From positions 1 through 38,935 of IMG/VR virus record IMGVR_UViG_3300045988_103843: DNA of 38,935 nucleotides, one strand, 5' to 3'. The translations under genes and the position numbers were made by a program. The stretch's first letter is position 1; every line of letters begins with the position of its first letter. This DNA comes from a virus. Shown here in pieces: positions 10,485-33,550 of this stretch. Under the pieces are notes generated by a model. It searched no databases. It worked only from the letters and a program-made list of their open reading frames with translations, and was not told where the DNA came from.

Positions 10485-11100
10485 ACGACCACTAATCCCG
10501 CCCTTTGTGTGACGTCCGCCACGACTGCGGCGGCGTCGATGTCTTCATATACCTTGGGCCGGACTACATCATACCATCGTCGGTTTAGGAACTTTTGTTG
10601 GCCCATGAGGTATAGGGAATCGGTGACGTATACCTTAAACGCCATCTCATCCCGCTCCCTTCTGTAACGGGCCTTCGTGAACTGGACGAATACGTCTGCC
10701 CTTAGAGGACCTCGAAACTCTCCAAGGCAGAGCCAGATGCATCTGCGTCCTTCTTCGTCTTCGGCGAGGATAAAAAACTGATGAACGCCTCGTCAGTCAA
10801 AAGCTCAATGGTGTCAGTGAACAGCTTTGCGAGGTTGAGCATATCGGTATACTCCTCAGGGGTCACACCCTCAATTGTAGCCAAAATTGTGATGACGTCT
10901 TGCTTGTGTCCCTTGAGCAAAACCGGCACACCCTTACGCATACGCGCAGCGAAGAACTCACGCGCTTCCATACCTTCCGGCACGGCCTTGCGCTTGAACA
11001 TTTCTGCGATGTCCTTATCCTGCGCGATATTTGCGACGGGGTCGATGAGGTCGGCGATGACGTCGAGGACACGGTCACCCTTGATATCGCTGAGTTTCAT
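10481..11100 (-). CDS. Tail assembly chaperone gpGT-like product made by a programmed -1 frameshift
   Basis: My hand translation shows the -1 frame open from the slippery site to a TGA at 10481-10483. That stop overlaps the TMP ATG as ATGA. This explains the otherwise ORF-free gap 10485-10701. Confidence 0.7.
10702..11100 (-). CDS. Tail assembly chaperone (gpG-like, zero-frame product)
   Basis: 132 aa acidic protein between the major tail and tape measure genes. Contains the slippery heptamer near its 3' end. Confidence 0.8.
   Translation of the reverse strand: MKLSDIKGDRVLDVIADLIDPVANIAQDKDIAEMFKRKAVPEGMEAREFFAARMRKGVPVLLKGHKQDVITILATIEGVTPEEYTDMLNLAKLFTDTIELLTDEAFISFLSSPKTKKDADASGSALESFEVL
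10771..10777 (-). other. Slippery heptamer T_TTT_TTA for the -1 frameshift
   Basis: Plus strand taaaaaa. On the coding strand, agT TTT TTA tcc in the zero frame (..F I S F L S..). Confidence 0.65.
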
Positions 11101-11125
11101 TTTACTTCCTCCTTCTTAGGCAGCA

Positions 11126-11728
11126 TTAGGCGTCTGCCGAACCTGCCTTGATGTAGATCTCGAATGGTACGGTGTCGATATTTTTCATGCTGTAATGGCC
11201 TGTATACTCGAAGCTGAACGTACCCTTCGCTTTGTCACCGGACTGGATCTTGAAACCACCGGTCGACAACGCGCTGATGAGCTTGATCGCGATGAAACCG
11301 GCCTTACCTGCAGACGTGCCGTCTTCGTTGACGTCGGAGTAGTCGCCGACCCACCAAATGTCTTTGAAATCTTCGGCGTCAACAAAGTTGCGGGGCACGA
11401 CCTTGGTCGGATCGTCGCTTACGGTGTCGGCAGTGCCGACGACAGATTTTGCGACGTTCGTATCCATCGTGACGAAAGTGCCGGACATCTTGGCATCCCA
11501 GCTGTCGAGCTTCTTGAGCTCTTTCGTGTTCTTCGGGCAGTTATCGATGTCGTCGCCAAAGTCGGTGAACGACGGCGTTGCCTCGAACGTCACACCACCG
11601 CTCGTCGCGCCGACGATATTACTCGCAGTGAGCGCACCGGTCGCCGGGTCGAAATCAGTGGTGAGGAGGCCGGCATTGAGCTGGAGTTTCTTGAATGTAT
11701 CCGTGGGGATCTGCGTGAACTTAGCCAT
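11126..11728 (-). CDS. Major tail protein
   Basis: 200 aa, in the position upstream of the chaperones. Typical siphovirus tail-tube-like composition. Confidence 0.8.
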   Translation of the reverse strand: MAKFTQIPTDTFKKLQLNAGLLTTDFDPATGALTASNIVGATSGGVTFEATPSFTDFGDDIDNCPKNTKELKKLDSWDAKMSGTFVTMDTNVAKSVVGTADTVSDDPTKVVPRNFVDAEDFKDIWWVGDYSDVNEDGTSAGKAGFIAIKLISALSTGGFKIQSGDKAKGTFSFEYTGHYSMKNIDTVPFEIYIKAGSADA

Positions 11729-11741
11729 TTAACTTGTCCTC

Positions 11742-12110
11742 TCAAAATGAGGTGATAAACTCTGCCGTCAAATTGATATGGCGGCGCTTGATCTTGCTGT
11801 CGGCGGTGTCACCCATACTCTGGCAGAACGGCGAGCCCTTTTTGAGTACGATTCCGCCACCATCGCATGGGATACACTTGCAGCCAGTGAGTGCCTTCGA
11901 GACATCGCGGGCTTTCGCATTCGGCTCCGCCTCCGAGTCACCGCGGCACCAAATGTCCATAGCCAACGCGACCTCGCCGCCCCAGAAATCATCGACAGAC
12001 AGCTCGTACGTGATGTACGGGAATTCCGCGTCGTCTGGTACGGAAGTCGCGGCGTACGCCGGGACATCGAAGCCGGCCATGAAATTGTAGATCGCTGCTG
12101 CCGGCGTCAT
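11742..12110 (-). CDS. Tail terminator / tail completion protein (assigned by position)
   Basis: The ATG at 12110 forms an ATGA overlap with the upstream stop, with GGAG 6 nt upstream. Confidence 0.45.
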   Translation of the reverse strand: MTPAAAIYNFMAGFDVPAYAATSVPDDAEFPYITYELSVDDFWGGEVALAMDIWCRGDSEAEPNAKARDVSKALTGCKCIPCDGGGIVLKKGSPFCQSMGDTADSKIKRRHINLTAEFITSF

Positions 12111-12454
12111 GACAAGCTCCATTCCTCGGCGTTTACCTGCTCAAACTGGAACGAGGCTGTGGAAGGTGTGCGCTTGTCGTCCCCGTTAGACGTGACACGG
12201 AACACCTGCCCGTCTGACTTACGCTTGAAAACGTCATGGAACTCTAGCGCTGCGTTTACCGCCGTAGTGACGGTATACGTGTTCGTGAGGCCGTCCTTCT
12301 CGGCGATGCGCGCCTGAAGGCTCGTGTCCCTCACGATCGCCGCATCGAACTCCGCGCCCTCCTGCCAGGCAGTAGTGAAACCGCCCTCGCCGTCGGACAC
12401 CTTAGCCTTGTTCATCACGACACAAGGTTCTTTGAAAGCATCGATCAAACTCAT
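12107..12454 (-). CDS. Head closure / head-tail joining protein (SPP1 gp16-like, assigned by position)
   Basis: The ATG at 12454 forms an ATGA overlap with the upstream stop. 115 aa. Confidence 0.45.
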   Translation of the reverse strand: MSLIDAFKEPCVVMNKAKVSDGEGGFTTAWQEGAEFDAAIVRDTSLQARIAEKDGLTNTYTVTTAVNAALEFHDVFKRKSDGQVFRVTSNGDDKRTPSTASFQFEQVNAEEWSLS

Positions 12455-13869: not shown

Positions 13870-13880
13870 AATTGCCTCCT

Positions 13881-14444
13881 TTAATCAGTGTTCTGCTTGG
13901 TGTACTTCTGTCGCAGGGCGTCGGCCAGCGATTTCGGTTCGGCCGTGCCGTCGCCACCGCCATTAGGCGGCGTATCGACACTCGCGGGCTTAGTGCCCTT
14001 GGTCGGGATGAAATCAGACCATTCGCCCTTGACCTTCTCCGTGACCTTGTCGGCATCCTTGATGGCGCCGTCCTCGACCACGATATTAGACAGGTCTGCG
14101 ACACGCATCACGGCATCCATACGCTTGGGGTCGACCCCGGCGTCATTGAGCAGTTTACGGTACAACGATTTCTTTTCACGGTCGGCGGCAGCCTTCGCAG
14201 TGTCTGCCTTGAACGCCTCGAAATCGGCGTGCTCCTTCTCGAACTTCTCTTTGAAACCGTCAGCAGGCTTGGCTTTGAGCTCCTCGAGCTCCGCCTCGGC
14301 CTTTTCCAGTCGATCAGCTGCATCTTTGAGCTCGTCGCGCTCGTCCTTCAGCGCGTTGACGGTCTCAGTGTGTGCATCGATGATCTGGTCGATCTTCTCG
14401 TCTTCGATCCCCATGGATCGGAGGAGTTTGCGGGTAAGTGCCAT
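13881..14444 (-). CDS. Scaffolding protein (GP20-like coiled coil)
   Basis: The ATG at 14444 (MALTRKLL...). Highly charged K/E/D/A-rich helical protein upstream of the capsid gene. Confidence 0.8.
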   Translation of the reverse strand: MALTRKLLRSMGIEDEKIDQIIDAHTETVNALKDERDELKDAADRLEKAEAELEELKAKPADGFKEKFEKEHADFEAFKADTAKAAADREKKSLYRKLLNDAGVDPKRMDAVMRVADLSNIVVEDGAIKDADKVTEKVKGEWSDFIPTKGTKPASVDTPPNGGGDGTAEPKSLADALRQKYTKQNTD

Positions 14445-14515
14445 GATGTTCGCTCCATTCCTTCGGACTCTGGGGCACATGCTTCGACCCCATACTGTAT
14501 AGCGCATTGCTTCGC

Positions 14516-14547
14516 GCATTTAACATAAATAATACCATGTTAAATGC
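14516..14547 (-). other. Perfect 11-bp AT-rich stem-loop in the intergenic region upstream of the scaffold and capsid genes
   Basis: gcatttaacat-N10-atgttaaatgc. It overlaps the stop codon of the 14540-14878 gene. Confidence 0.35.
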
Positions 14548-15121: not shown

Positions 15122-17734
15122 TTACTTGTATTTGTCCTTCGAGCCGGTCCACTCTTTGGGATCCTGCTGGAACTTATCGTAACCCTGCTCGGGGTGCAGC
15201 TCCAGCACGACATGCATCTTGCCGTCGGTGCCTTTGTACACGTCTGTCGCGGTGTAGTAACCGCCGCGCTGCAAGATCATCTCCGATTCCTGGCCGAAAC
15301 TGTGTTGTTCCTTCTTACCGTCCCATTCACCGTAACTTGCGCCAGAGAATGCACTGAACGGCTCCGCATACATCATCTCAGACCCGGCAGGGCAATAGAT
15401 CTCCATAGCGACAGGCTTATGGCTGAAACCTTTGCCTGCCGCAGTACCAGTCGACACGAACGACTGAATGCGGTTGGACATGCCGACGAACGATTTGAGC
15501 TCATCGGTACTCATACCGCTCAACTTCGACGCACTCGTGCCGAAGAACGACTCCATGGCGTTGTAGTCGCATCCACGCACGAGCCACGTGTCGTGGTCGT
15601 ACGTCGACTTCTCGATGAGCGACGTCATGTTGCGGATCGCCGAACCCTTGCCTTCGTAATCGATCCAAACGTCACCTGGGCCGACATAGAACTTCTTCTC
15701 CCATCCCGTGCCAGGTGCGCTATACGGCTTGCGGAAGCCAGACAACGGGCGGTTCCACGCACCGGAGGCTGCGGTATAGCCGTAGATACCCTTACGCTCT
15801 GCAGAGGTAGCTTCGCGCCAGACCTTGCCGCATCCTTCTCGGAAATGCTTGTCGGCCTCAGCCGACGAATCGAACTTCCACGCGTTCGCCTTGCGCTCCT
15901 CGCTGAATGCCGAATCTTCGACGAGTCCCAGGTCGACCATCTGTTTGTGGATCGACTGCCGCTTGAGCTTCAATGCCGACATGTTGTCGACATGTGATTT
16001 ATACGCCTGGCCTTTCTCATCGAACTCTTTCGTGTCGTCGATGAACTTCGACCACTTCGCGAATGCCTGGTCATCGCCTGCGTCCGCGGCCTTTGCGGCT
16101 TGCTCGGTGAAATAATCGAGCTTCTTGGGGATCGCGTCTTTCTTAGCGTCCCAATCGGCGAGCGTCACGGGGTCTTTCCAAATGCCGGAATACGTCTTGT
16201 CGGAACTCTTCATGAGCTCTTTCAGCACGTCGATCTCGTTATCGACATCCTTCAGCTGACTATCGAGTGCGTTGGCGAGCTTCTGCTCTTCGGTCAGCTT
16301 CTCTGTTTTCCATTCCTCGTAATTCATGTCGCCGAGTTTGTTGGCACGCTCGACTTCGTCGTACTCCACATCGCCGATAACGGGCACAAGCGTGCAGCGG
16401 CAGTTGTAGACTTCAGAGGCAGGGCCGTCCGGGTCACCCGGGTACTTCAGCCCGTTGCTGAATTCCGCATCGAGTTTGACGGTCTCGCCGTCTAGGTGGC
16501 GGTGGCTGCCGCGCGTGCGCGAATCGAGCGCCGCGAGCCATTGCTTGTCGACATCGATACCCATGTCTGCGGCGCGCTCGTATCCCTTGAGCTTGCCGAG
16601 CGAGTGCGCACTCGTAATGGCAGTGCGTGCAGCCTTCATAGCGGCACGCTGGTCCATGGCGGCGATACCGGCGATCGAGGCGGCGAGCTGCGGGACCGTC
16701 TGGCCCTGCAGCACGGCCTGCGTCACCGCAGACGTGACATGGCGGCTGTTCCAGGCAGAATCTTTCGCCTTGTCGAACGCCGCCTGCGGGAGCAGGTCGG
16801 GCTCGTTCGCGACGAGCTCCATGACGGTGTTCTTGTTGTACAGCGTGAAAGACGTGTTCGCCTTGGCGCCGTGCTCGATCTCATACGTCGCGAAGTTCAT
16901 GCCCTCCGCATACACACCGGCCGGCACTTGGTTGACGTAAGCCATAGCCATCTTGTCGGCGGCGGTGAGGTCTTGCGTTAATGCCTTCTTGAGTGCCTTG
17001 AGCTTGTCGTTGTGCAACGCCTGGTCCTTGCGCCAAGCCTTATATGCCTTCGCGTCCTTTTTGCCGGCTGCGACGTCGGCTTGCCATTTAGCATCTTCGG
17101 CAGCGAACTCTTTGAGCGAGGACTCGATACGTGCCGTCATGCCGTCAATCGCATCGGCGTAGGTGAGCTGCAGTTTCTGCTGCAGCTCCTGCGCCTGCTT
17201 CTCGAGCAGCTTGGCCTGCGCGCCGTCCTGCGCCTTCGCGGCCTTCGCTGCGAGCTTCTTGCCAGCCTTGCCGGCACCGTCCTTCGATTTGTAGCCGTTC
17301 TTGAACGTGCCATCGGGCATCAAATACCCATAAGTGCCGTCGGTGAACGTGTTGACGACATAGCCGCCCTTGTCTTCGCTCTTCAGGACCTGCGGGCCTT
17401 TCGGCTCTGCGGCTACGAGCTTGGTGGCTGCCTTCTTGGCGCCGTCTTTCGACTTGTAACCCTCTTTATGCTTGCCGCCGTCCGTCATGTAGCCATAAGT
17501 ACCGTCTGAATACGTGTCGATCTGGAAGCCGTCGAAGTATTGTGTCTTGGTGACGGTCGCAGGGCCTGCGGCTTCATCGGGTACGAGCTCGTACATACCG
17601 ATTTTCAAGGCGTACGCGGCCGCTTCCTTAAACGTCTTAAACGACTTTATCGATGGATGGTCTGTATTCGTTAGATACTTCCACCCCGACACACCCTTGA
17701 TAACGGGGACCTCGTCAATTGAGTGAATTTTCAC
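15122..17734 (-). CDS. Head morphogenesis protein (Phage_Mu_F / SPP1 gp7-like) fused to a C-terminal ADP-ribosyltransferase (R-S-E, C3/VIP2-type) domain
   Basis: MuF motif SRTRGSHRHLDGE...YNCRCTLVP in the middle. The C-terminus carries ERKGIYGYTAASGAWNRPL, WLVRG, FVSTG and QESEMILQRG. GTG start with AAGGTGA as RBS. Confidence 0.85.
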   Translation of the reverse strand: MKIHSIDEVPVIKGVSGWKYLTNTDHPSIKSFKTFKEAAAYALKIGMYELVPDEAAGPATVTKTQYFDGFQIDTYSDGTYGYMTDGGKHKEGYKSKDGAKKAATKLVAAEPKGPQVLKSEDKGGYVVNTFTDGTYGYLMPDGTFKNGYKSKDGAGKAGKKLAAKAAKAQDGAQAKLLEKQAQELQQKLQLTYADAIDGMTARIESSLKEFAAEDAKWQADVAAGKKDAKAYKAWRKDQALHNDKLKALKKALTQDLTAADKMAMAYVNQVPAGVYAEGMNFATYEIEHGAKANTSFTLYNKNTVMELVANEPDLLPQAAFDKAKDSAWNSRHVTSAVTQAVLQGQTVPQLAASIAGIAAMDQRAAMKAARTAITSAHSLGKLKGYERAADMGIDVDKQWLAALDSRTRGSHRHLDGETVKLDAEFSNGLKYPGDPDGPASEVYNCRCTLVPVIGDVEYDEVERANKLGDMNYEEWKTEKLTEEQKLANALDSQLKDVDNEIDVLKELMKSSDKTYSGIWKDPVTLADWDAKKDAIPKKLDYFTEQAAKAADAGDDQAFAKWSKFIDDTKEFDEKGQAYKSHVDNMSALKLKRQSIHKQMVDLGLVEDSAFSEERKANAWKFDSSAEADKHFREGCGKVWREATSAERKGIYGYTAASGAWNRPLSGFRKPYSAPGTGWEKKFYVGPGDVWIDYEGKGSAIRNMTSLIEKSTYDHDTWLVRGCDYNAMESFFGTSASKLSGMSTDELKSFVGMSNRIQSFVSTGTAAGKGFSHKPVAMEIYCPAGSEMMYAEPFSAFSGASYGEWDGKKEQHSFGQESEMILQRGGYYTATDVYKGTDGKMHVVLELHPEQGYDKFQQDPKEWTGSKDKYK

Positions 17735-21754: not shown

Positions 21755-22030
21755 TCACTCCTCAAAATCGGCGCAGCAGTCGCTGTCGTCCACTATCGCG
21801 TCCTCGACCGCGGCCAGGATGTACCTGGGCGTCCAACGCTGCGTGCCCTTGAGCTCTGCGAGCGCGCCTTTCAACTTGAGCTCGCATACATGGCAGTCGA
21901 GCTCGTCCGATTCGATGCAATGGCGGCATTCACTGCAGTAGCGGCGCTCGCCGCCGTAAGCGCGGTCGATGTCGTCGTCGAAGCAACCAGGCGGCAGGTT
22001 GTAGCCGCAATCGGGCTCGTAATCAGGCAT
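21755..22030 (-). CDS. Small acidic Cys-rich protein (last gene before the late region)
   Basis: 91 aa with 8 Cys, including CSECRHC and CHVC. Confidence 0.65.
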   Translation of the reverse strand: MPDYEPDCGYNLPPGCFDDDIDRAYGGERRYCSECRHCIESDELDCHVCELKLKGALAELKGTQRWTPRYILAAVEDAIVDDSDCCADFEE

Positions 22031-22307
22031 TTCTCAGGTCCTCCCCACACCACGGGCAATACCGCGGTATCGTCTCGAACTCGGTCCAACTCGTAATATA
22101 CGTATCGTCGTGCTCGTAATGCACGACGCCGAATACGAGGTCGCACCTAGGGCAATGGACGGCGTCGACTGGGTCGACGTCATCTATCGCGACTACCTGG
22201 TCAGTGTACACCAACTTGCGCGGCTTCCACTTCTGAAACGATGGTGTCGCCCCGCACGTCGGGCAGTCGCACGGCCTCGCGAACTTAATCCTGCGCCCCA
22301 TCTTCAA
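22023..22307 (-). CDS. Zinc-ribbon protein
   Basis: 94 aa with CDCPTC...CPRC...CPWC pairs. Overlaps both neighbouring genes. Confidence 0.65.
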   Translation of the reverse strand: MKMGRRIKFARPCDCPTCGATPSFQKWKPRKLVYTDQVVAIDDVDPVDAVHCPRCDLVFGVVHYEHDDTYITSWTEFETIPRYCPWCGEDLRNA

Positions 22308-22638
22308 TCACCTCCGCCCCGCAATGTGGGCAACGCTCATATTTGCCGTAGATCTCCTCACAAGACCTGCCGCACTTGCTGCATTCGTAGATCCTCACTT
22401 CGACGTTCCCATGGGTCTCGACGGCCGTGAGCTCGAGGCGACACGTCGGACGGTCGATCAGGTCTGCGAGTTCTTCCCAACGAGTTGTACAGCCGCCTTC
22501 GAGTTGGCATAGCGCTTGTGTATCGCTGAACAACCTCAGGCTGAGCTCCTGGCACTCATCGCACTGGTCGAATCCATTGCAGTCGCAGCGTGTACGCAAT
22601 TCCTCGGCTATCTCACGGTACTCTTCGTCTGTGATCAT
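22285..22638 (-). CDS. Cys-rich zinc-ribbon-like protein
   Basis: 117 aa with CDC...CDEC and C-terminal CSKC...CPHC. Confidence 0.65.
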   Translation of the reverse strand: MITDEEYREIAEELRTRCDCNGFDQCDECQELSLRLFSDTQALCQLEGGCTTRWEELADLIDRPTCRLELTAVETHGNVEVRIYECSKCGRSCEEIYGKYERCPHCGAEVIEDGAQD

Positions 22639-23033
22639 TTACCGTCACCCCTCAGTTTGTGGATACGCGATGCGATGTCCGTACACATGTTAACCGTGCA
22701 ATCACCTACATAGAGCTTGCAGTCGACACACCGTTTCCCGATATTGCGAGCGTATGCGCATGCGGGGTCGTTGCAATCGGGGGAATCTTCGTAAGTCTCG
22801 ACCGCATGCAGGTCCTCGTCCAGCTTCTCCCAACTGTCGGGCCCGTCTAGATACATATCGCTGACGGCGAAATATGACGACATGCTGTGCGTGAACCTCA
22901 CTCTCCACGTATCGCTATTTGCGAAGTATGCGAACAGCCTCACGTCGTTCGCATTACCATACCTGTCATACAGCACTTTTGTATCTAGCGGGACCTCTCG
23001 CCCATCGGCGTCTTTTGGCGGCTCGATATTCAT
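22635..23033 (-). CDS. Hypothetical protein, paralog B of a tandem pair
   Basis: 132 aa. Shares PKDADGREVPLDTKVLYD, PDSWEKLDEDL and RIHKLRG with the upstream gene. Confidence 0.7.
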   Translation of the reverse strand: MNIEPPKDADGREVPLDTKVLYDRYGNANDVRLFAYFANSDTWRVRFTHSMSSYFAVSDMYLDGPDSWEKLDEDLHAVETYEDSPDCNDPACAYARNIGKRCVDCKLYVGDCTVNMCTDIASRIHKLRGDGK

Positions 23034-23425
23034 CGGTCTTCATCCTTCAGCTTATGGATGCGCTGTGCGACATGTTCTACCATTTGAACGAGGCATTCTT
23101 TATTCAGGTCGGCACGGCACTTTTCGCAAGCGTCGTCTGCGGGGTCAAAATATTCACAGGGCGCGTAACGAGTTGAGGCAACACACCTGTCCAAGTCCTC
23201 TGCCAACTTCTCCCAACTATCAGGTGGTGTGAGGTAATAGTCCTGCGGATAATACTTTACGCCGGACGTATCGAACAAAAACTGCACTCTCCATTGATTG
23301 CACAGTTTTTGAGATATATATTCCCACGCATAAATGACCAACGACTTACCGTTCTTGTCGTACAGCACATTAGTGTCTAATGGAATCTCGCGGCCCTCGG
23401 CATCCTTGGGCAATTCGATAGCCAT
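23030..23425 (-). CDS. Hypothetical protein, paralog A of a tandem pair
   Basis: The ATG at 23425 (MAIELPKDAEGREIPLDTNVLYD...) follows GGAGGA. The longer track ORF (to 23560) would overlap the MazG-like gene with an R-rich N-terminus. Confidence 0.7.
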   Translation of the reverse strand: MAIELPKDAEGREIPLDTNVLYDKNGKSLVIYAWEYISQKLCNQWRVQFLFDTSGVKYYPQDYYLTPPDSWEKLAEDLDRCVASTRYAPCEYFDPADDACEKCRADLNKECLVQMVEHVAQRIHKLKDEDR

Positions 23426-23439
23426 TTCTTCCTCCATCC

Positions 23440-23742
23440 TCAGAGCCTGCCTCGGCCCTCGTTCCTCTCGTCCATGCGCATGATTGCAGCATCGACTTCG
23501 CCTTGCGTGGCACCGACGGCCGCCAATACGTTCGCCACGGCCTGCACTGTGTCCAGGCACTCGTCGATGAGCTCCTCGCGGAACACCTTACGCATCGCCT
23601 CGGGCGCGTACTGCATGTTGTCGTACTTCTGCCAAGCGCCGTAGATCTCAGCCGCCTCCTCCAGTGGCTTGAGCACCTGCGGCTTCGCGTCCTCGACCTT
23701 GCGGAACACCCGCATGTTCAATAGGTAACCGTCGATCATCAT
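23440..23742 (-). CDS. MazG-like all-alpha NTP pyrophosphohydrolase (copy 1)
   Basis: 100 aa. EEAAE (ExxE) ... ELID (ExxD) metal-binding pattern about 25 residues apart. C-terminal RNEGRGR. Confidence 0.65.
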   Translation of the reverse strand: MMIDGYLLNMRVFRKVEDAKPQVLKPLEEAAEIYGAWQKYDNMQYAPEAMRKVFREELIDECLDTVQAVANVLAAVGATQGEVDAAIMRMDERNEGRGRL

Positions 23743-23756
23743 TTACCACTACCTCC

Positions 23757-24584
23757 CTAGATACATTGCTCGATAACTGCCTTGCCGCGCAGCTGGCCGA
23801 CCCACTTCGGAGGGATGGCCTCGAAACCGTAATATGTGCCGGCTAGCGCTCCGGCCACTGCCGCCGTGGTGTCTGTGTCGTCGCCGAGCTCGACTGCCTT
23901 GAGCACACAGTCTTCGTATGAGTGCGTGTTCAGGAAACACCACAGCGCCGCCTCGAGTGTGTGCTCGCAGTATCCATCGCTTTTGACGGCGCCGACAGGC
24001 CTCGATGCGATGTGCCCGTACCTGCGCCAGAGGTCGACTTTAGCCGGCGTGCCGACGTTTCGGATGGTCCGCAGCATGTCGCACAACGCGACGCATGACC
24101 ACTCGGCCACGGGGTGCGCATGGGTGATTGCTGAGACCTCGCGTATATGGTAGGGTTCAGCGTAGTCGATCATGGCGAGCGGCGCCGTCCTCATGAGCGA
24201 CCCGTTGCCGCACCCGTCATATGACTTCGCGGGCACGCCCGTCGTGATCGCCTTCCGGCACGTCATGCCGGTGTCGAAAACACGCCCGTCGCACGTGAAC
24301 TCACCGTCCTGCAGCCATCGGTGGAACCTGTCTGCGATGTCCGCAAAATCGATATATGCGCGATGCTTGATACTCGAGCAGATGCACAGGGCCATCGACG
24401 TGTCATCGGACCACGTACCGGCTGGCTGCCCATGAGCGCCGCCATCTACCATGCCGGTGCAATCGAACGTACCACGCTCGCAAAACTCATACGGCACGCC
24501 CAAGGCGTCACCGACTGCGAGCCCGTATATACACGAGCGCATGCGGTCCCTGTCATAATGCACGCAGTTATGCGTGGTCGACAT
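23757..24584 (-). CDS. ADP-ribosylglycohydrolase (ARH/DraG family)
   Basis: GLAVGDALG, GTWSDDTSM, GNGSLMR and LGDDTDTTAAVAGALAG. The full set of binuclear-metal motifs is present. Confidence 0.88.
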   Translation of the reverse strand: MSTTHNCVHYDRDRMRSCIYGLAVGDALGVPYEFCERGTFDCTGMVDGGAHGQPAGTWSDDTSMALCICSSIKHRAYIDFADIADRFHRWLQDGEFTCDGRVFDTGMTCRKAITTGVPAKSYDGCGNGSLMRTAPLAMIDYAEPYHIREVSAITHAHPVAEWSCVALCDMLRTIRNVGTPAKVDLWRRYGHIASRPVGAVKSDGYCEHTLEAALWCFLNTHSYEDCVLKAVELGDDTDTTAAVAGALAGTYYGFEAIPPKWVGQLRGKAVIEQCI

Positions 24585-24762
24585 AGCGCACCTCCCTCGC
24601 CTCGAACTCGCCGACCGTGCCGTCGGGGAACTCGACGAGCCCGACGGGCTTCTGGTTGTTCCCGAGGAAACCGCCTCGCTGGAACCACCCGATCAAGTCG
24701 CCGTAGCGGCCGTGTACGGCGACCGGCCGCGACTCCATGGATACGACCACTTGCACCTGCAT
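24568..24762 (-). CDS. Small hypothetical protein (64 aa)
   Basis: The internal ATG at 24762 forms a TGATG junction with the stop of the upstream MazG-like gene. MQVQVVVSMESRPVAVHGRYGDLIGW... Confidence 0.55.
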   Translation of the reverse strand: MQVQVVVSMESRPVAVHGRYGDLIGWFQRGGFLGNNQKPVGLVEFPDGTVGEFEAREVRYVDHA

Positions 24763-25112
24763 CAGTACCTGCCTTTCATGTTGTTGCGCTTCTCGCAACG
24801 CCTCATCAACTCCGACATGTCGTCGACACCGACTGCCGCGACGCAGTTGACGACCGCTTGGATCACGTCGGCCGCCTTGTCGAGCATCTTGTCGCGTGCC
24901 TTCGCCGAATACCGCTGGTTGCCGCGGCGCTGCACCCAGAACTGCCACGCGGTGAACAGCTCTGCCGCCTCCTCGAGCGGCTTCGTGAATTGCGGCTTGT
25001 CGTCTGCGTAGACGTATTTGAAATGCCTCACTTCACCGATCAGCACTTCCTGCCTCCCATCCCCCATGTCGAACACCGACACGGGCACTGATTTCGTGGG
25101 GTCACCGTGCAT
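24762..25112 (-). CDS. MazG-like all-alpha NTP pyrophosphohydrolase (copy 2, divergent second motif)
   Basis: The ATG at 25112. Shares KPLEEAAE.....AWQ with copy 1. The second motif is DKAAD instead of ExxD. Confidence 0.55.
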   Translation of the reverse strand: MHGDPTKSVPVSVFDMGDGRQEVLIGEVRHFKYVYADDKPQFTKPLEEAAELFTAWQFWVQRRGNQRYSAKARDKMLDKAADVIQAVVNCVAAVGVDDMSELMRRCEKRNNMKGRY

Positions 25113-25128
25113 AATGACGACACCCACC

Positions 25129-25362
25129 TCATCGGTCCTTGATCGCATATTCGACGGCCATGCCGAGCACAGGCAAAAACAGGAAAGCATACTCGCCGCC
25201 TACGGCGAAATAGCCCCTGTCTGCGAACGCATAGGCCGCGGCGACGGCCGTGGCCACGATACCGACGACCGTCAGGGCCGTATAGACAAAATCACGTATG
25301 GTTAGTCCTCCATTCGTTGGAAAGTATCGCAGTCGGCGCTGATGGCACGTGCGCGGATGCAC
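25129..25362 (-). CDS. Small membrane protein (start uncertain)
   Basis: Two hydrophobic segments (FVYTALTVVGIVATAVAAAYAF; YAFLFLPVLGMAV). The ATG at 25362 would overlap the upstream gene by 61 nt. Confidence 0.5.
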   Translation of the reverse strand: MHPRTCHQRRLRYFPTNGGLTIRDFVYTALTVVGIVATAVAAAYAFADRGYFAVGGEYAFLFLPVLGMAVEYAIKDR

Positions 25363-27492: not shown

Positions 27493-27738
27493 ATGATTAA
27501 GACTTTCGATGATGCCATCAAGCTCGAGCGCGTCCAGTACAAGCAGCCGTTCAATGAGGCATATGAGATCACCAACTACGACCGTCGCGTGAAGATCGTC
27601 CTTGATAACTACTGTGTGCACTATGTCCGCTTCAAAGCCGCCAACCGCGGCCAGTGGAAGTCGATGGGCCGCAAGGAGTTCGAGACCGCGAATAAGCAGC
27701 TTTGCATCAAAAACGCCCTCAAGTGGGTCAATGCATAA
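27493..27738 (+). CDS. Hypothetical 81-aa basic protein; the only convincing plus-strand gene
   Basis: MIKTFDDAIKLERVQYKQPF... It has its own RBS and promoter-like elements and is followed by two hairpins. Visibly less GC-rich than its neighbours. Confidence 0.7.
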   Translation: MIKTFDDAIKLERVQYKQPFNEAYEITNYDRRVKIVLDNYCVHYVRFKAANRGQWKSMGRKEFETANKQLCIKNALKWVNA

Positions 27739-27760: not shown

Positions 27761-27792
27761 GGAGGTGCGGTTTTGGGCCACCGCACCTTCCT
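27761..27792 (+). terminator. Hairpin 1 downstream of the plus-strand gene
   Basis: ggaggtgcggtt-ttgggc-caccgcaccttcc followed by tctttc. Confidence 0.55.
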
Positions 27793-27803
27793 CTTTCGGG
27801 TAG

Positions 27804-27849
27804 GGGAACACCCCAGATGCGATTGCGCGTCTGGGGTGTTCTTCTTTTT
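27804..27849. terminator. Bidirectional Rho-independent terminator between convergent genes
   Basis: gggaacaccccagatgcg / cgcgtctggggtgttc stem with one G-T pair. A T-run (ttcttttt) follows on the plus strand. On the minus strand the hairpin lies just after the dCMP deaminase stop. Confidence 0.7.
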
Positions 27850-28297
27850 ACTGTGCACTTGTGACGACTTCGACGCCTGCATTGCCTATCATGCGCATGC
27901 ACACCGGGCATGGCGATATGTCGCCGGCAGGGATGCGCTCGCCTGTCTCGAGGTCGACACCGGCCAAATACAGCGTGGCGCCGATCATCTCAGAGCGCGA
28001 GGCCGACAGCATCGCGTTCATCTCGGCGTGTACCGCCGGGCATGAGCCGTAATCACCGTCGTTATGCCCGTGGCCATGGCGGTGGCATATGCCCACATCC
28101 GTACAGTTGACGTCGCCGCGTGCGGCACCGTTGTAGCCGGTGGCGATGATCTCGTCGTTGGCCACAATCACGGCACCGTAGCGGCGGCGCAGGCACGTCG
28201 ACCTTGCCGCCACGGCTAACGCGATGTCGAGGTAGTACTCAGCTTTACTAGGCCTCGCCGGTCGATCCGAAAGCACCGTCGCCCCTCTCTTCGCCAA
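27848..28297 (-). CDS. dCMP deaminase (CMP/dCMP zinc deaminase family)
   Basis: HAEMNA and PCPVC zinc motifs; EYYLDIALAVAARSTC N-terminal helix. The likely true start is the GTG at 28276 (GAGAGGGG upstream) rather than the TTG at 28297. Confidence 0.88.
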   Translation of the reverse strand: MAKRGATVLSDRPARPSKAEYYLDIALAVAARSTCLRRRYGAVIVANDEIIATGYNGAARGDVNCTDVGICHRHGHGHNDGDYGSCPAVHAEMNAMLSASRSEMIGATLYLAGVDLETGERIPAGDISPCPVCMRMIGNAGVEVVTSAQ

Positions 28298-28667
28298 GCT
28301 GTTCGACGAAATCGGCCAACACGATCGGCATGACGACGAGCTGGCCGATACGGGTACCGCCCGGCACCTTCTTGAGTTTGTCGGTCAAGTTGGTGACGAT
28401 CGCGTGTACCTCGCCGGTGTAGCCGGAATCGATCGGCGGCAGCTCGCACACGAGGCCTTCGAGGCTCATGCCAGATCGCGGGAACACGCAGGCCATGACG
28501 CCGTCAGGCAGCTCGAGCGAGAAGCCCAACGGGATGCGGCGGGTCTCATGCGGCTTCAGGGTCTCACCGAAAGTGGTGTATACGTCTGCCCCGGCATCGT
28601 TGTAATGCGCACGCACCGGGAGCTTGACGTCTGAGGCCTCGCCGATACGGTTGATCTTAATCTTCAT
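28248..28667 (-). CDS. dut: Trimeric dUTPase-fold nucleotidohydrolase (dUTPase; dCTPase activity not excluded)
   Basis: AGADV, PRSG, IDSGYTGE, RIGQLV and RGDGAFGSTG, which are dUTPase motifs I-V. RBS GGAGGT. Confidence 0.88.
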   Translation of the reverse strand: MKIKINRIGEASDVKLPVRAHYNDAGADVYTTFGETLKPHETRRIPLGFSLELPDGVMACVFPRSGMSLEGLVCELPPIDSGYTGEVHAIVTNLTDKLKKVPGGTRIGQLVVMPIVLADFVEQLGEERGDGAFGSTGEA

Positions 28668-29475
28668 CCTTTACCTCCGTGATGATGGCGTTATTGAGAC
28701 AATATTCTGATACGGCAGGCCTCGGTGTGTCGGACGACATCGCGATGCGTTCGATCTCCGAGATATGGGCTAAAAACTTCTCGATGTCGAATTTGAGATG
28801 CGGTGCAGTATGCTTGCAGCACCAGACGCCACGGACGCGGTCGATGTCCTTAGTATATGCGTGAAGCGACACCGCGAAATGCGTGTACTTGCCGTATTCG
28901 ACGCCGAGTTCGTTCGCGATATGCTTCTGCAGCTCCGTGAAGAACACGACGTCATAAGGCGTGCCGAGCCACACGTCGTTGGAACGCATGATGCCGGTGC
29001 AATCGAGCTTGCCCTCGCGGAGCTCGAATACGAGGGCGATCGTGCAGATCTCGTCTTTCGTCTCGAAGCGCTTGGGGTTCGGCACGTTGAAATTGATGAC
29101 CGCACGACGCGAAGTCGGGTCGCGCTTAAGTGTGTCGATGACCTGCGCGACCTGGTCGAAGCCATAGCGGTTGAACACGATGGCGCCGTACGCCGATCGG
29201 TTCGTCGCGCCGTCATCGCTGATATGCTTCCAGAACGACGAAAACTTCGAGATGAACTCGACGTCGTCGCGGCCGGTGAAATACCATGCCAGCTCACCGA
29301 GCATATATGAAAGCGAGTAGCCGGTGCGTGCCGTCGCGATGTTGTCAGTGATGTCGAGCAGCGTGAAACCGCTATTGAGCAGTTCCTTTGTGCCGGCGAC
29401 CTCTTGGCCCTGTACTGAGATCTTGCCGCACAGTTGGCGGTAGATGTCGTTCATCGACTTGCCTACAACATGCAT
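28657..29475 (-). CDS. Thymidylate-synthase-fold deoxypyrimidylate hydroxymethylase/methylase, T4 gp42 (dCMP hydroxymethylase)-like with an Asp specificity residue
   Basis: GELAWYF (catalytic Glu), DPTSRRAV, DEICTIALVF (nucleophile Cys) and MRSNDVWLGTPYD. Aligned by eye with E. coli ThyA QRSCDVFLGLPFN and T4 gp42 MRSNDVVFGFRND, Asp replaces the ThyA Asn177. RBS AAGGAGG. Confidence 0.8.
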   Translation of the reverse strand: MHVVGKSMNDIYRQLCGKISVQGQEVAGTKELLNSGFTLLDITDNIATARTGYSLSYMLGELAWYFTGRDDVEFISKFSSFWKHISDDGATNRSAYGAIVFNRYGFDQVAQVIDTLKRDPTSRRAVINFNVPNPKRFETKDEICTIALVFELREGKLDCTGIMRSNDVWLGTPYDVVFFTELQKHIANELGVEYGKYTHFAVSLHAYTKDIDRVRGVWCCKHTAPHLKFDIEKFLAHISEIERIAMSSDTPRPAVSEYCLNNAIITEVKDED

Positions 29476-29939
29476 TTCAAAACCTCCTTAATACACCAAT
29501 CGACGTCATTGTCGTCCAAAGTGATCACACTGCTATTTGCGGCGGCGAACTCCTCGTAACGACGATAAATGAGCCCGATACTATCGGTGATGACGTCGCC
29601 GAACTCGTCGCCACGTAGTGTGAGGCGCCGCACCACCTCAGCGAGCGGCGGTAACACGATGACGATCGGGATGCCTAAGACAGAACACATGTAAGTCAGT
29701 TTCTCACAAGCATCGTTGTCGATACGTTGGGTGCGGCCAAATATATCGGCGTAAATTTGTTCGCTGATCCAGCAGCGGTCGATCACGACGCCGTCACATG
29801 CGAGCTTCTGCATGTACTCGGTGGCCGACTGTCCGCCGTTGCACGTCATCTTCAAGATGTTCATGTCGAGTTTATCGGCGAGCGCCTTCGCAAGCGTGGA
29901 CTTGCCGGCACCGTCAGGGCCTTCGATGATGATAGGCAT
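29463..29939 (-). CDS. Thymidylate-kinase-like dNMP kinase (short form)
   Basis: P-loop IIIEGPDGAGKST and a Tmk-like DRCWISEQIY (DRxxxSxxxY) motif. 158 aa. RBS GAAGGAG. Confidence 0.75.
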   Translation of the reverse strand: MPIIIEGPDGAGKSTLAKALADKLDMNILKMTCNGGQSATEYMQKLACDGVVIDRCWISEQIYADIFGRTQRIDNDACEKLTYMCSVLGIPIVIVLPPLAEVVRRLTLRGDEFGDVITDSIGLIYRRYEEFAAANSSVITLDDNDVDWCIKEVLKCML

Positions 29940-29942
29940 GGT

Positions 29943-31826
29943 TTACTCCTTCGTGAAAACACGTACACGTTTGCCGTTGACACGGCAGGTCTTACTTGCC
30001 AGGCCGTAGTGTTTATTGGCCTGGCGTGTGAATTCGTTTTGGCCGAGCGGCTTCAGGTTGTTCCTGATCGCCCAGGCCATATAGTAGTCGTACACTAACG
30101 CCGTCGACTCGTTCACCACCTCGTCGACAGGCGTGTCCTCGAAGTAGCCGAGGACGGGGTTGTTGGCGACGTTGTAGTCTTCGATCTCCTTGACGACGAC
30201 ATCTGGCATCGTAAACGAGCGGTTTGCCAAAACCCGCTCAAGTCCCTTGAGGCCGATGTTGATCAGGTGGCTCATGACCTCAGGCGAGTGGAGCTTGTAC
30301 TTGATGTACGGGTCGAAATCTGGGTCGTCTTTCGAAAACGTCGCCTTGAACGGCACGAGTACGATGCGGTCGAGCACAGCACCGGTCTTGTCCCTGATGC
30401 GCGGCATGGAATTCGCCGAGAACAGCAGCTTGGCATAACTGGCGAAGTCAAACGGGTCTTGGCCCTTACGCTCGGCGTTGACGCGGTCACCGCTTACGAG
30501 CTTCTTGAAAATAGCCGGGTTTGCGATGAACTCGTCGCCGATGTCGTCGCCGATGTTGGCCAACTTCCCAAACAGCTCCGCCGTCTTGAACCGCTCGCCG
30601 AGCTCCGCCAGGTCGAGTGCCGATGTATTGCCGTCACCGAGTAATGTCTTGAGCATGTCGAGGTACGTCGACTTGCCGTTCGCCTTGTCGCCGATCAGGA
30701 TGAAACTCTTGCGGAGCTCGTTACGCCTATAGAACAGGTAGCCGATAACCTCCTCCAGCAGGGCGTAGATACCGTCGTCATTGCAGGCGAGGCGACGCAG
30801 TGTCTTGTCGGTGAACTCCGACCAAATCGTCGGGTCGTACTCCCATGGGATGCGGTTCGTGATCACGAACTCCGGAGAGAACGGCTCAAGCTCGCCGGTC
30901 TTGATGTCGTACACACCGTTGGCGAACGCGATGTAATCGGCATCGGCCGCAGGTGCGTCATCTTGGATGAGCACGTCAAGGTAGTTGAGTACCTCGGTGC
31001 GCTTGGCCTTCGACAGCATCGGCAGGTGCCTGATCATCGCGTTCTCGATGAGGAGGTTGCCGGACACATAGACACCGTCACGGTATATATGGAGCTGCCG
31101 GCCGATCTTGACGATACGGTGTTCGTTCTTGAGGTACTCCGCGAACTTGTCGAATAGGAACGTGCCCTTGTTGTAGAACACATCTTCGGCAAATGCATCG
31201 TCGCGGTAGACGACATCGAGCTCCTGCTGCTCCATGGGCTTGTCGAACATATAGCGATTGATCACCGCCAACGTCTCGCGCGCCTCGTCTTTCGTGAAAC
31301 CCTCCGACTGCAGTGTCAAGATGTAGTTGAATAACGCCTGGTTGCGGCCGTCACCCTCTTCCATCTCGTCGAAGTCTGGCACATACTTCACCGGCCTCAG
31401 CCAGCACGGCAGCTCGTCGTAATCCTCGTCCGGCTCGATATCGTAGATCACATCGCGCTCGTGGCCGTCGACTTTCAGGCTGCCGTATGTGGCTTTCGAC
31501 CCGACTTTGATGTCGGCGTCGATGCCGATCGCCAGGCGTGCGTGTGTCTTGCATTTCATACCACGGGGGTAGCCGACGAAATAGAAATGCTTGCCGCGGG
31601 TCGTGGCGACGACCTTGCACGCGATCTGCTCGGCCTCGACGATGTCCATCAACTTCTCACTCTGTGCCATGTCGTCGATGTCGACGAAAATCGTCTCAGG
31701 CGCGAGCACACCACCGTAGCCGTCGAGTTTACGCGCCTGCGCCAGTGTGAGGTACTGGCCGTCTTTCAGCTTCTGTGCGCACTTCTTGCCGTTGAGTTTC
31801 ACATAGCCCATAAATAGGCGGTCCAT
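29943..31826 (-). CDS. Primase-helicase (Prim-Pol-like N-terminus, D5_N, P4-type SF3 helicase C-terminus)
   Basis: FVDIDD...ATTRGKHFYF. Walker A ILIGDKANGKST. The ATG at 31826 forms an ATGA overlap with the polymerase stop. Confidence 0.85.
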   Translation of the reverse strand: MDRLFMGYVKLNGKKCAQKLKDGQYLTLAQARKLDGYGGVLAPETIFVDIDDMAQSEKLMDIVEAEQIACKVVATTRGKHFYFVGYPRGMKCKTHARLAIGIDADIKVGSKATYGSLKVDGHERDVIYDIEPDEDYDELPCWLRPVKYVPDFDEMEEGDGRNQALFNYILTLQSEGFTKDEARETLAVINRYMFDKPMEQQELDVVYRDDAFAEDVFYNKGTFLFDKFAEYLKNEHRIVKIGRQLHIYRDGVYVSGNLLIENAMIRHLPMLSKAKRTEVLNYLDVLIQDDAPAADADYIAFANGVYDIKTGELEPFSPEFVITNRIPWEYDPTIWSEFTDKTLRRLACNDDGIYALLEEVIGYLFYRRNELRKSFILIGDKANGKSTYLDMLKTLLGDGNTSALDLAELGERFKTAELFGKLANIGDDIGDEFIANPAIFKKLVSGDRVNAERKGQDPFDFASYAKLLFSANSMPRIRDKTGAVLDRIVLVPFKATFSKDDPDFDPYIKYKLHSPEVMSHLINIGLKGLERVLANRSFTMPDVVVKEIEDYNVANNPVLGYFEDTPVDEVVNESTALVYDYYMAWAIRNNLKPLGQNEFTRQANKHYGLASKTCRVNGKRVRVFTKE

Positions 31827-33550
31827 CACATCACCCCAAACTGTGCTAACCGCGTTTTCGCGAGTTGAATATACCAACTCTTATCCAAATAAGCCGGGCA
31901 TTTCTTGCCGTGCACGTCGCCGTTATCGATAAATGAGTGCTCGCTTGTGTTGCCGAACTTCTCTGGCTTTGCCTTACCTGCCTTGACACGCCCGACCAGG
32001 CCGTCCGAATCGCGTGTAGATGCAAAGACTCGGAAACACTTGTCGGTGAGCCGCTCATGCCCGTGTACACCATACTTGTATTTGCCCGATACCTTCACGA
32101 CACGCTGGTAATCGATTAAGTCGTCGTCGGCTGCGATTGTGTCTTCGACAGGCACACCATGCACCATGTAGTCTACGAGCGCTTTGTTGACGACGGCGAG
32201 GTCGCAATCGAGCGGCCCCAATTTCTTGACATACGCGCCTTTCGTCTTCACCGACCCGTCAGCGGCCACGAGGACATAGTTGTTGACATCCTTCTGGTAG
32301 ACGCGGGTGAACTCGTCGAATTCCAAGCCCATGCCGGTGCGGTGCTCCCACTCATACGCCACGTCGTCGACACGGTCGTAGAACGCATCGGGCCCGCCTT
32401 CGAAACCGTCGGGCATGCGGATGAGTACACCGTCGGTATTACTCTGGATGATCTCCGCTCCGGTGTCACGGACCAACTTGTGCATGAGGTCGATGAGCAT
32501 GAGCTGCCCGTTGACGCAGACCATGTTTGCCTGACGCGGGTCGTAGAGTGCGTTGAACTTGTCTTTGCTGGCGCCAAATGTGCCGTTGACGACGAGTTTC
32601 AATGCCTTCTGGCGGGGGTCTTTCACATGCTTCAGCTCGATACGGTGGTCGCGGATGCCCTTGAACTTCGATGGGTCGTGCACATTGCGTGATAGCAGAT
32701 CGTGCTCAATCATCTCCGCCGGGTAGTAACTCTCGACGTCGGCGTTGATGAAATAACCCTCGCCGGCGTACTGTGTGAGCGCACCGTGCAAGCCTCCCCA
32801 CGCACACTTGTGCGGGCAGCCTGCGATGTCGAAATCGAGCGTCGCCGAGTAATCTTGGTTGGCCGTGTCGAGGTACCATGTCCGGATGAAATCATAAGGC
32901 CCGAGGTCGAGGCATGCGAGGGTCTCGATGTCGAACTCGTCGTCACGCGGGCGCGCCGGGCGCTCGGCACCGAGGATGATCGCCGTCAACTGTGCGTCGG
33001 TCTTGCCAAGGTACACCAATGGGAGGTCGAACATTTTGAGCAGGTCCATGCGCGCGTCGAACTCGTTTTTGCGCTGCATGAATACCTCAATTGTCTGCTC
33101 GACGTCATGGCGGCAATATTTCACGGTCTCGGCGATCTCGGCTTCAGTCAATTTGCGGTCGATGTCGAATGGCACCGTCGTCTCACAAATGTCGTTACCC
33201 ATATAGGCCTCGAGTGTCTTGAGGCCCCTGTCAGTGCGGTGATGGAACACGTCGTAATTGACCATGTATACCTTGCGCAGCAAACTCGAATACTGCCAGC
33301 CCTTATGGCCTTCGGCGATGATGAAATCATTGATCGCCTTCGGGTCAAAGCCGCACAAGATACCCTTGAAAATAAACTGGTCGTAATGGAGGTTGTTGTA
33401 CCCTACCCAAATATCGCGTTTACGCTCTTCGTAGAGCGCGGTGAGCGCGTCGGCATCGTTGATGATGACGCGCTCGTCGCGTGTGACGGGGTTGATGACT
33501 ACGACCATCCAGTCGTGTTTGAAAACTTCGAAGTCGTAGAAATTGAGCAT
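31826..33550 (-). CDS. Family-B-like DNA polymerase with a 3'-5' exonuclease domain
   Basis: Exo motifs YDFEV, NNLHYDQFIF, YCRHDVEQT. Polymerase motifs DVESYYPAEM (A), KLVVNGTFG (B), SNTDGV (C). Confidence 0.8.
   Translation of the reverse strand: MLNFYDFEVFKHDWMVVVINPVTRDERVIINDADALTALYEERKRDIWVGYNNLHYDQFIFKGILCGFDPKAINDFIIAEGHKGWQYSSLLRKVYMVNYDVFHHRTDRGLKTLEAYMGNDICETTVPFDIDRKLTEAEIAETVKYCRHDVEQTIEVFMQRKNEFDARMDLLKMFDLPLVYLGKTDAQLTAIILGAERPARPRDDEFDIETLACLDLGPYDFIRTWYLDTANQDYSATLDFDIAGCPHKCAWGGLHGALTQYAGEGYFINADVESYYPAEMIEHDLLSRNVHDPSKFKGIRDHRIELKHVKDPRQKALKLVVNGTFGASKDKFNALYDPRQANMVCVNGQLMLIDLMHKLVRDTGAEIIQSNTDGVLIRMPDGFEGGPDAFYDRVDDVAYEWEHRTGMGLEFDEFTRVYQKDVNNYVLVAADGSVKTKGAYVKKLGPLDCDLAVVNKALVDYMVHGVPVEDTIAADDDLIDYQRVVKVSGKYKYGVHGHERLTDKCFRVFASTRDSDGLVGRVKAGKAKPEKFGNTSEHSFIDNGDVHGKKCPAYLDKSWYIQLAKTRLAQFGVM

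Follow-up and report, generated by a model that had tools for sequence, protein, structure and literature searches.

We propose that four overlapping genes in the IMG/VR virus record IMGVR_UViG_3300045988_103843 (positions 1 to 38,935; this whole stretch of 38,935 nucleotides is referred to as the window) probably constitute a pre-replicative cytosine-replacement module, which would provide the phage with DNA containing 5-hydroxymethylcytosine (5hmC). The window is a near-complete siphovirus-type genome of ~39 kb in which nearly every gene lies on the minus strand; it encodes a tape-measure protein and a major tail protein, and a sheath gene is absent. An earlier reading of this DNA, hereafter the first-pass annotation, had placed the four genes after those for a DNA polymerase and a primase-helicase, and both this arrangement and all of the motifs quoted from the translations were recovered. 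In the order of transcription the genes are:

31826-33550, minus strand: DNA polymerase, upstream of the four-gene module in the same operon
29943-31877, minus strand: D5-type primase-helicase, directly upstream of the kinase gene in the same operon
29463-29939, minus strand: P-loop (d)NMP kinase of the SPbeta YorR type, 158 amino acids (AA)
28657-29475, minus strand: thymidylate synthase (TS)-fold enzyme, predicted deoxycytidylate (dCMP) 5-hydroxymethylase, 272 AA
28248-28667, minus strand: trimeric dUTPase, 139 AA
27848-28297, minus strand: dCMP deaminase, 149 AA, with an uncertain TTG start; last gene of the operon

The overlaps kinase/TS, TS/dUTPase and dUTPase/deaminase amount to 13, 11 and up to 50 nt, respectively.

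Central to this proposal is the TS-fold enzyme, which matches PF00303 (1.3e-25) and finds its best PDB match in MilA, a CMP (cytidylate) hydroxymethylase (1e-25), the best thymidylate synthase following at 1e-16. The TS fold is present with its catalytic Cys and phosphate-binding Arg/Ser set: C144, R122/R123, R164, S165, H205 and Y207 match the references, and Cys144 corresponds to Cys148 of T4 gp42 and Cys146 of E. coli ThyA. Features of a canonical ThyA, namely Asn177, His147 and a score over the equivalog cut-off, are lacking, and the protein falls under every NCBIfam ThyA equivalog cut-off (77 and 73 bits versus 174.55 and 327). According to the first-pass annotation the protein is closer to gp42 than to ThyA, which holds for the active-site signature but not for overall similarity, identity being 22% (22-25%; 47 bits) to gp42 and 25% (~49 bits) to E. 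coli ThyA.

The same annotation had put an Asp at the place of ThyA Asn177, and formal alignment by MAFFT, BLASTP and phmmer agrees that this is Asp175 (in the motif PYD), the equivalent of T4 gp42 Asp179. In the phmmer alignment to solved thymidylate synthases, RSNDVWLGTPYDV of the TS-fold enzyme is paired with RSADVFLGVPFNI, with Asp175 at the place of the specificity Asn. The active site as a whole comprises, with the E. coli ThyA equivalents in brackets, Glu61 (E58), Trp82 (W80), Tyr96 (Y94), Arg122/123, Asp141 (L143), Cys144 (C146), Thr145 (H147), Arg164/Ser165, Asp167 (D169), Asp175 (N177), His205 and Tyr207. Three residues ahead of the catalytic Cys, Asp141 has its counterpart in D145 of T4 gp42, where ThyA has Leu and the enzyme of the Xp12-like phage AXL1 has Asn, and the pattern Asp141/Thr145/Asp167/Asp175 is that of T4 gp42. 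It differs from that of AXL1, a member of the 5-methylcytosine phage group, with Asn at ThyA position 143 and Pro at 147, as well as from that of the deoxyuridylate (dUMP) hydroxymethylases SPO1 gp29 and the ViI-like Salmonella phage 38 enzyme, which have Asn at both 177 and 147. Phage contigs with and without cytosine modification are best told apart by the two residues at 177 and 147 (PMC8670742); an acidic residue at 143 is linked to a hydroxymethyl product and a non-acidic one to a methyl product, and Asn at 169 marks the flavin-dependent 5-hydroxy-dCMP synthases (PMC13326640). Judged by these rules, the diagnostic residues fit a predicted 5-hydroxymethyl-dCMP synthase.

The gene neighbourhoods of related enzymes lend further weight to a hydroxymethyl product, as enzymes dependent on a 5-hydroxymethyl group repeatedly accompany this TS subfamily. 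Among cultured phages, the closest homologues are those of Lactobacillus phage ATCCB (45% identity) and of the Enterococcus siphophages VPE25, VFW and their relatives (42-55%). In VPE25 and ATCCB the TS gene is immediately preceded by a gene for a homologue of the window kinase (E 6e-8 and 5e-6, respectively), with a beta-glucosyltransferase gene downstream. The DNA of VPE25 and VFW is cytosine-modified, resisting both bisulfite conversion and restriction (PMC4999554). A 2024 Nat Commun study of enterococcal type IV restriction (PMC11322646) does not mention VPE25 and was not used as evidence. In the IMG/VR contig L083, whose TS gene is 51% identical, a beta-glucosyltransferase gene (L083:6723-7739; 48.6% identical to the T4 enzyme) has the TS gene on one side and the dUTPase gene on the other. 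The gut phages L079-L082, a sister clade with polymerase and primase-helicase 45-56% identical to those of the window and the same kinase-TS-dUTPase order, carry a 546-AA carbamoyltransferase immediately ahead of the deaminase (L079:8643-10283, L081:9108-10760; also L080 and L082). This carbamoyltransferase family makes 5-carbamoyloxymethylcytosine from 5hmC and has been found in such a TS gene context (PMC8670742).

Within the window itself the first-pass annotation had recognised no glycosyltransferase, in agreement with our searches. No homologue was found by tblastn of the window with the beta-glucosyltransferases of T4, VPE25 and ATCCB and the second VPE25 transferase, the glucosyltransferase search covering the window and distant relatives only. 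Likewise, no glycosyltransferase family appeared among the ~45 window open reading frames (ORFs) scanned, a set that does not include some ten short ORFs (42-132 AA) or the plus-strand ORFs at 11778-12317 and 13872-14528, both probably spurious. A carbamoyltransferase homologue was found neither in the window (tblastn) nor in any related locus fetched. The suggestion that an accessory gene might encode a new modifier or an inhibitor of type IV restriction found no candidate in this analysis.

Of the three other enzymes of the module, the deaminase matches PF00383 (1.4e-17; 63.8 bits against a cut-off of 25), carries the zinc motifs HAEMNA and PCPVC, and finds the dCMP deaminases of S. mutans (1.6e-12) and T4 (6e-12), as well as cyanophage and human ones, in PDB; by sequence we therefore assign it as a zinc-dependent dCMP deaminase of the CDA fold. 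The dUTPase (PF00692, 7e-21; 74.7 bits against a cut-off of 22) is of the trimeric type with all five motifs (AGADV, PRSG, IDSGYTGE, RIGQLV and RGDGAFGSTG) and is 53% identical to that of VPE25. With a dN/dS of 0.05-0.11, and retained in lineages whose TS gene is inactivated, it is probably a general dUTP-sanitising and dUMP-supplying enzyme rather than a pathway-specific dCTPase; the idea of a dCTPase hidden in this protein was considered and is unlikely, given its standard motifs and the purifying selection on it where the TS gene is inactivated.

The Pfam match of the kinase is limited to the P-loop, PHROG 761 ('thymidylate kinase') is hit at 4e-15, and PDB entry 2axp (SPbeta YorR) matches over the full length at 1.2e-6; BLASTP found no similarity to T4 gp1 (E = 61). 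We presume that it acts on 5-hydroxymethyl-dCMP (5hmdCMP), which would make it analogous, not homologous, to gp1. Two alleles of the kinase gene circulate among the relatives: the type of the window is 95-98% identical in L021, L025, L028, L032 and L034, and a second, ~63% identical, is found in all other relatives of the set L008-L040, the flanking genes being 90-94% identical. Such a pattern suggests a mosaic exchange restricted to this one gene.

In the pathway that we propose, the TS-fold enzyme would act on dCMP, not dUMP. Cys144 would attack C6, C5 would receive one carbon from methylene-tetrahydrofolate, and the exocyclic methylene intermediate would take water instead of hydride to give 5hmdCMP. 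The diphosphate would be made by the adjacent YorR-type kinase and 5hmdCTP by the host nucleoside diphosphate kinase, after which the phage polymerase would incorporate it. The dCMP deaminase and dUTPase would hold down the dUTP level and keep the supplies of dT and hmdC in proportion, much as the cd deaminase does in T4, and since the phage is without a thymidylate synthase of its own, they would feed dUMP to the host ThyA. As no 5hmC-decorating enzyme was found to be encoded, the 5hmC probably stays bare, and because a convincing dCTPase is not present, replacement may be incomplete.

Genetic support of an indirect kind comes from the close relatives of the phage. At E <= 1e-10 the TS homologues amount to 349 protein clusters, which come from contigs of 33-40 kb in a very abundant uncultured clade, and the active site was surveyed in the 120 closest clusters (P0001-P0120; 78-93% identity), which represent ~1,700 sequences. 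Asp occupies the ThyA-177 position in 118 of these 120. Catalytic residues are replaced in many homologues, also at the loci L042, L043 and L088-L091, with the ORF kept at full length: the Cys is replaced by R, Y, F or G in 22/120 clusters, the Glu has become G, A or V in 21/120, and the folate-site Trp is altered or deleted in ~80/120; often several active-site residues are replaced together in one homologue. Replacement of the Cys concerns ~10% of member sequences and 18% of clusters, the latter figure probably being too high, as copies in decay are divided among more clusters. In a tree built without the columns concerned, the changes are polyphyletic. A diversity-generating retroelement was rejected as their source, the substitutions (C to R/Y/F/G, W to L/R/S) not being adenine-specific. 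Inactivated forms are absent from the IMG/VR collection, where all relatives have intact active sites, and an artefact of the search seed was dismissed as the reason when two inactivated variants used as queries returned the same contigs. The window itself has the fully intact configuration.

The state of the TS gene is mirrored by that of the deaminase gene. A deaminase is present in 28 of 29 genomes with a fully intact TS active site and in two of another six whose active site differs elsewhere, the Trp being altered or deleted and, in one of the six, Arg127 being Ser as well; none of the five Cys-replaced genomes examined has an intact one (Fisher p = 2e-6, uncorrected for relatedness). Loss has taken two routes, an internal 57-bp deletion followed by decay and a clean deletion of the whole gene. 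In five of the six clean-deletion genomes (L030, L036, L088 at 10538-11488, L090 and L091), and only in such relatives, in which the TS gene is decaying, we find a C5 cytosine DNA methyltransferase (PF00145, 316 AA, with PCQ and ENV motifs); it occurs in none of the 20 deaminase-positive genomes with enough flank, nor in the window (Fisher p = 9e-5, again uncorrected for relatedness). This distribution fits the view that the intact TS/deaminase pair and the C5 methyltransferase are two mutually exclusive ways of occupying cytosine C5, and such exclusion indirectly supports a C5-cytosine function of the TS-fold enzyme. We read the deaminase and TS-fold enzyme as the pathway-specific pair, and the kinase and dUTPase as general nucleotide enzymes. 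The dN/dS of the TS gene is 0.11 in deaminase-positive and 0.20 in deaminase-negative genomes, compared with 0.04-0.05 for the polymerase and primase-helicase. Private substitutions, called against the consensus of deaminase-positive relatives, include coding-strand A>G changes in 46/149 cases in decaying TS copies (L042, L043, L089) versus 14/143 in intact ones; since A>G changes rarely create stop codons, this may be part of the reason for inactivated copies staying open.

It is unlikely, in our judgement, that the TS-fold enzyme is instead an Xp12-type dCMP methyltransferase, so that the phage DNA would contain 5-methylcytosine (5mC) and the deaminase would turn part of the 5mdCMP into dTMP. 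An Asp at 177 fits 5mdCMP synthases as well, AXL1 having one; no 5hmC-using enzyme was found in the window; and cis-linked deaminases have been shown to use 5-substituted cytosine nucleotides as substrates, with 5mdCMP being made by five of the seven TS homologues linked to them (bioRxiv 10.1101/2024.12.05.627091). The methyl product is disfavoured because the residue at ThyA 143 is acidic, the Asp143/Thr147 combination being that of T4 gp42 and of the enzymes linked to beta-glucosyltransferases, unlike the Asn143/Pro147 of the Xp12-like enzyme. Moreover, every closer homologue is linked to hydroxymethyl-requiring enzymes, and dihydrofolate reductase (DHFR), which accompanies TS in Xp12-like phages, has no homologue in the window (tblastn). 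The first-pass annotation had allowed either product; the published signature and the 5hmC-decorating enzymes of the relatives speak for the hydroxymethyl one. A further step down in probability, 5hmdCMP might be a mere intermediate that the linked deaminase converts to 5hmdUMP, giving DNA with 5-hydroxymethyluracil (5hmU), alone or beside 5hmC. In vivo, 5hmdU does arise from the 5hmdC pathway through some TS-linked phage deaminases (bioRxiv 10.1101/2024.12.05.627091), and the deaminase is tightly co-inherited with an intact TS gene and lost with it. It is similarly doubtful that a deaminase working on 5hmdCMP lets a single Asp-type TS homologue supply both 5hmC and 5hmU; if true, this would account for the two genes being kept or lost together and for no decorating enzyme being needed. 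T4-like pool balancing, however, predicts the co-loss equally, the deaminase is nearest to ordinary dCMP deaminases, and no enzyme removing dTTP or dTMP, hmU-specific kinase or transferase was recognised.

Still less probable is an enzyme acting on dUMP, either in an ordinary thymidylate set (deaminase, dUTPase, TS and Tmk) or in an SPO1-type dUMP hydroxymethylase set. dUMP is the product of both the deaminase and the dUTPase, and the database name of the TS-fold protein is 'thymidylate synthase'; the Asp at the 177 position, conserved in nearly all of the close homologues, argues against the two enzymes feeding a dUMP hydroxymethylase, given that the characterised dUMP enzymes ThyA, SPO1 gp29 and the ViI-like one have Asn there, and the scores lie far under the ThyA equivalog cut-offs. 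A homologue in Agathobaculum phage AB434P2 (L002:3838-4500) annotated 'deoxyuridylate hydroxymethyltransferase' might seem to favour dUMP; yet it too has Asp at this position, together with the T4-like Asp/Thr signature, and has probably been misannotated as acting on dUMP. Finally, a flavin-dependent 5-hydroxy-dCMP synthase, of the type of RB69 gp48 and DLP3 gp80, is very improbable. N177D and an acidic 143 are common to that group (PMC13326640), but Asp167 is retained at ThyA 169 and the diagnostic D169N signature is therefore absent, and no arabinosyl- or glycosyltransferase genes were found. The 5mC, 5hmU and 5-hydroxycytosine alternatives thus each fail a tested diagnostic or have weaker evidence than 5hmC.

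Several observations nevertheless weigh against the 5hmC pathway that we favour. The residue rules are correlative and drawn from a limited set of tested enzymes, and all seven TS homologues beside characterised 5-substituted-cytosine deaminases in the study cited above were predicted 5mdCMP makers. The TS gene evolves faster than its neighbours, whose dN/dS overall is 0.04-0.06, and its inactivation in many relatives implies that the pathway is dispensable in the clade. In addition, tblastn of the window with T4 gp56 and the AXL1 NTP pyrophosphohydrolase returned no homologue, and without a dCTPase of either the gp56 or the Xp12 type full replacement of dC is doubtful.

The last point touches on two small helical proteins of ~95-100 AA, which the first-pass annotation had described as two MazG-like genes spanning 23440-25112 and offered as possible dCTPases. 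This range also contains a third gene, located between them:

23440-23742, minus strand: small helical protein, 100 AA, candidate all-alpha NTP pyrophosphatase, no sequence-family match
23757-24584, minus strand: ADP-ribosylglycohydrolase (PF03747, 8e-60)
24762-25043, minus strand: paralogue of the 23440-23742 protein (39% identity, BLASTP 7e-18)

Judging from shorter homologues in relatives, the true start of the 24762-25043 gene probably lies inside a longer ORF at 24762-25190. Membership of the MazG family found no match for either paralogue in Pfam (E up to 5), a PDB profile search or NCBIfam. An AF2 model of the 23440-23742 protein (pLDDT 69) had DCTPP1, RS21-C6 and PRA-PH as its top Foldseek hits, none significant (E ~2; TM ~0.47 for DCTPP1), and a homologue, P0198, bears one nr name of 'triphosphate pyrophosphohydrolase'. 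Both paralogues are kept in relatives with an inactivated TS gene, where a dedicated dCTPase would be harmful, which argues against such a role, and the fold resemblance is a weak lead at most.

The module can be compared with several known systems. Its description as T4-like is apt for the predicted chemistry of the TS-fold enzyme (catalytic Cys, Glu, the Asp179 equivalent, acidic 143 and Thr at 147) and for the deaminase, a relative of T4 cd, but not for gene content: the kinase is unrelated to gp1, the dUTPase is trimeric instead of gp56-type, and neither a gp56 dCTPase nor glucosyltransferases nor a phage thymidylate synthase (td) were found in the window. The T4 genes are scattered and those of the window contiguous, and in the clade of the window the pathway seems dispensable. 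VPE25/VFW, vipetofem, nattely, 9183 and ATCCB are siphoviruses like the window phage, whose TS homologues share the Asp/Asp/Thr signature and are directly preceded by the small kinase gene; in VPE25 the dUTPase gene follows directly downstream. Unlike the window, these are 80-86 kb phages of Firmicutes with another replication module. Their genomes encode two sugar enzymes, one of them a T4-like beta-glucosyltransferase, and in the part examined no dCMP deaminase gene is linked to that for TS, whereas the window has the deaminase and no transferase was found.

Similar, too, are the contigs from MetaGPA that combine TS with a 5hmC carbamoyltransferase (PMC8670742), as represented by L079-L082, in which kinase, TS, dUTPase and then deaminase follow one another as in the window; the difference lies in the carbamoyltransferase gene, which was not found in the window or in its close relatives. 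In the window, the dUTPase and deaminase genes adjoin with nothing in between. The 5mC cassette of Xp12 and Pamexvirus-type phages (NTP pyrophosphohydrolase, TS homologue, dCMP deaminase and DHFR) likewise places an Asp-type TS beside a deaminase in siphoviruses, and Xp12-like phages have in common with the window a MuF minor-head protein fused to an ADP-ribosyltransferase domain (PMC9206674). Its TS enzyme is of the Asn143/Pro147 kind, and the flanking DHFR and recognisable NTP pyrophosphohydrolase were not found in the window. That an Asp-type TS is linked to a deaminase in cytosine-modified phages has in any case been published before: in the MetaGPA ranking of domains associated with cytosine modification of phage DNA, the TS domain came first and the deoxycytidylate deaminase domain was among the leading families (PMC8670742), and a TS homologue is found within 3 kb of 70% of the deaminases in modified contigs versus 6% of those in unmodified ones, most deaminase-linked TS homologues being predicted 5hmdC or 5mdC makers (bioRxiv 10.1101/2024.12.05.627091). 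Nor is an hmC pathway in a siphovirus a novelty, VPE25/VFW having been described in 2016 (PMC4999554) and the MetaGPA contigs thereafter (PMC8670742).

The replication operon that ends with the module begins with a SNF2 helicase, followed by a VRR-NUC-like nuclease, an exonuclease/Sak4 fusion, a DUF669 single-strand-binding protein, the DNA polymerase and the D5-type primase-helicase. Its end, and that of the nucleotide genes, is marked by a hairpin:

27763-27788, minus strand: terminator-like hairpin, just 3' of the deaminase stop codon

Right after the deaminase gene and behind an AT-rich stretch lies a lone plus-strand gene (27494-27738; ~81 AA) with no family match, which is kept in relatives such as L008 and L012; it ends at a terminator-like hairpin with a 20-bp stem, hairpins being located at 27802-27845 (plus strand) and 27788-27763 (minus strand). 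Elsewhere in the window, 15122-17734 (minus strand) encodes the MuF-like minor head protein fused to an ADP-ribosyltransferase toxin domain (PF04233 and PF03496). At 22023-23443 (minus strand) there is a series of small Cys-rich, zinc-ribbon-like proteins in a region that is highly variable among relatives, including paralogues at 22635-23033 and 23030-23443 (minus strand) that have the motifs 'EVPLDTKVLYD' and 'PDSWEKL' in common.

When cultured relatives were sought by blastn of 7 kb of the window against 50,697 phage records, no more than two matches, of 100 bp each, were obtained. Contigs of this phage (L095 and L096, from GTDB genomes), one of them 36.6 kb long, are binned in two metagenome-assembled genomes of 'uncultured Collinsella sp.', and from this binning and the G+C content of 57% the host is possibly Collinsella.

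As a discovery of an enzyme or a pathway the module contributes little, such an architecture having been both described and tested in other work. If our proposal is correct, however, a very common lineage of human-gut siphoviruses would carry undecorated 5hmC; library preparation by enzymatic or bisulfite-type methods, as well as nanopore base calling, would give unusual results with its DNA, and the lineage would be a natural target of modification-dependent (type IV) restriction. The most interesting part lies outside the original finding, in the on/off/alternative polymorphism among the relatives, the statistics of which are uncorrected for relatedness. The clade constitutes a natural experiment with three states, namely intact hmC genes, decaying hmC genes together with a C5 methyltransferase and, in the sister clade, hmC genes together with a carbamoyltransferase, and a comparison of these states could show what selects for or against each cytosine modification in the gut.

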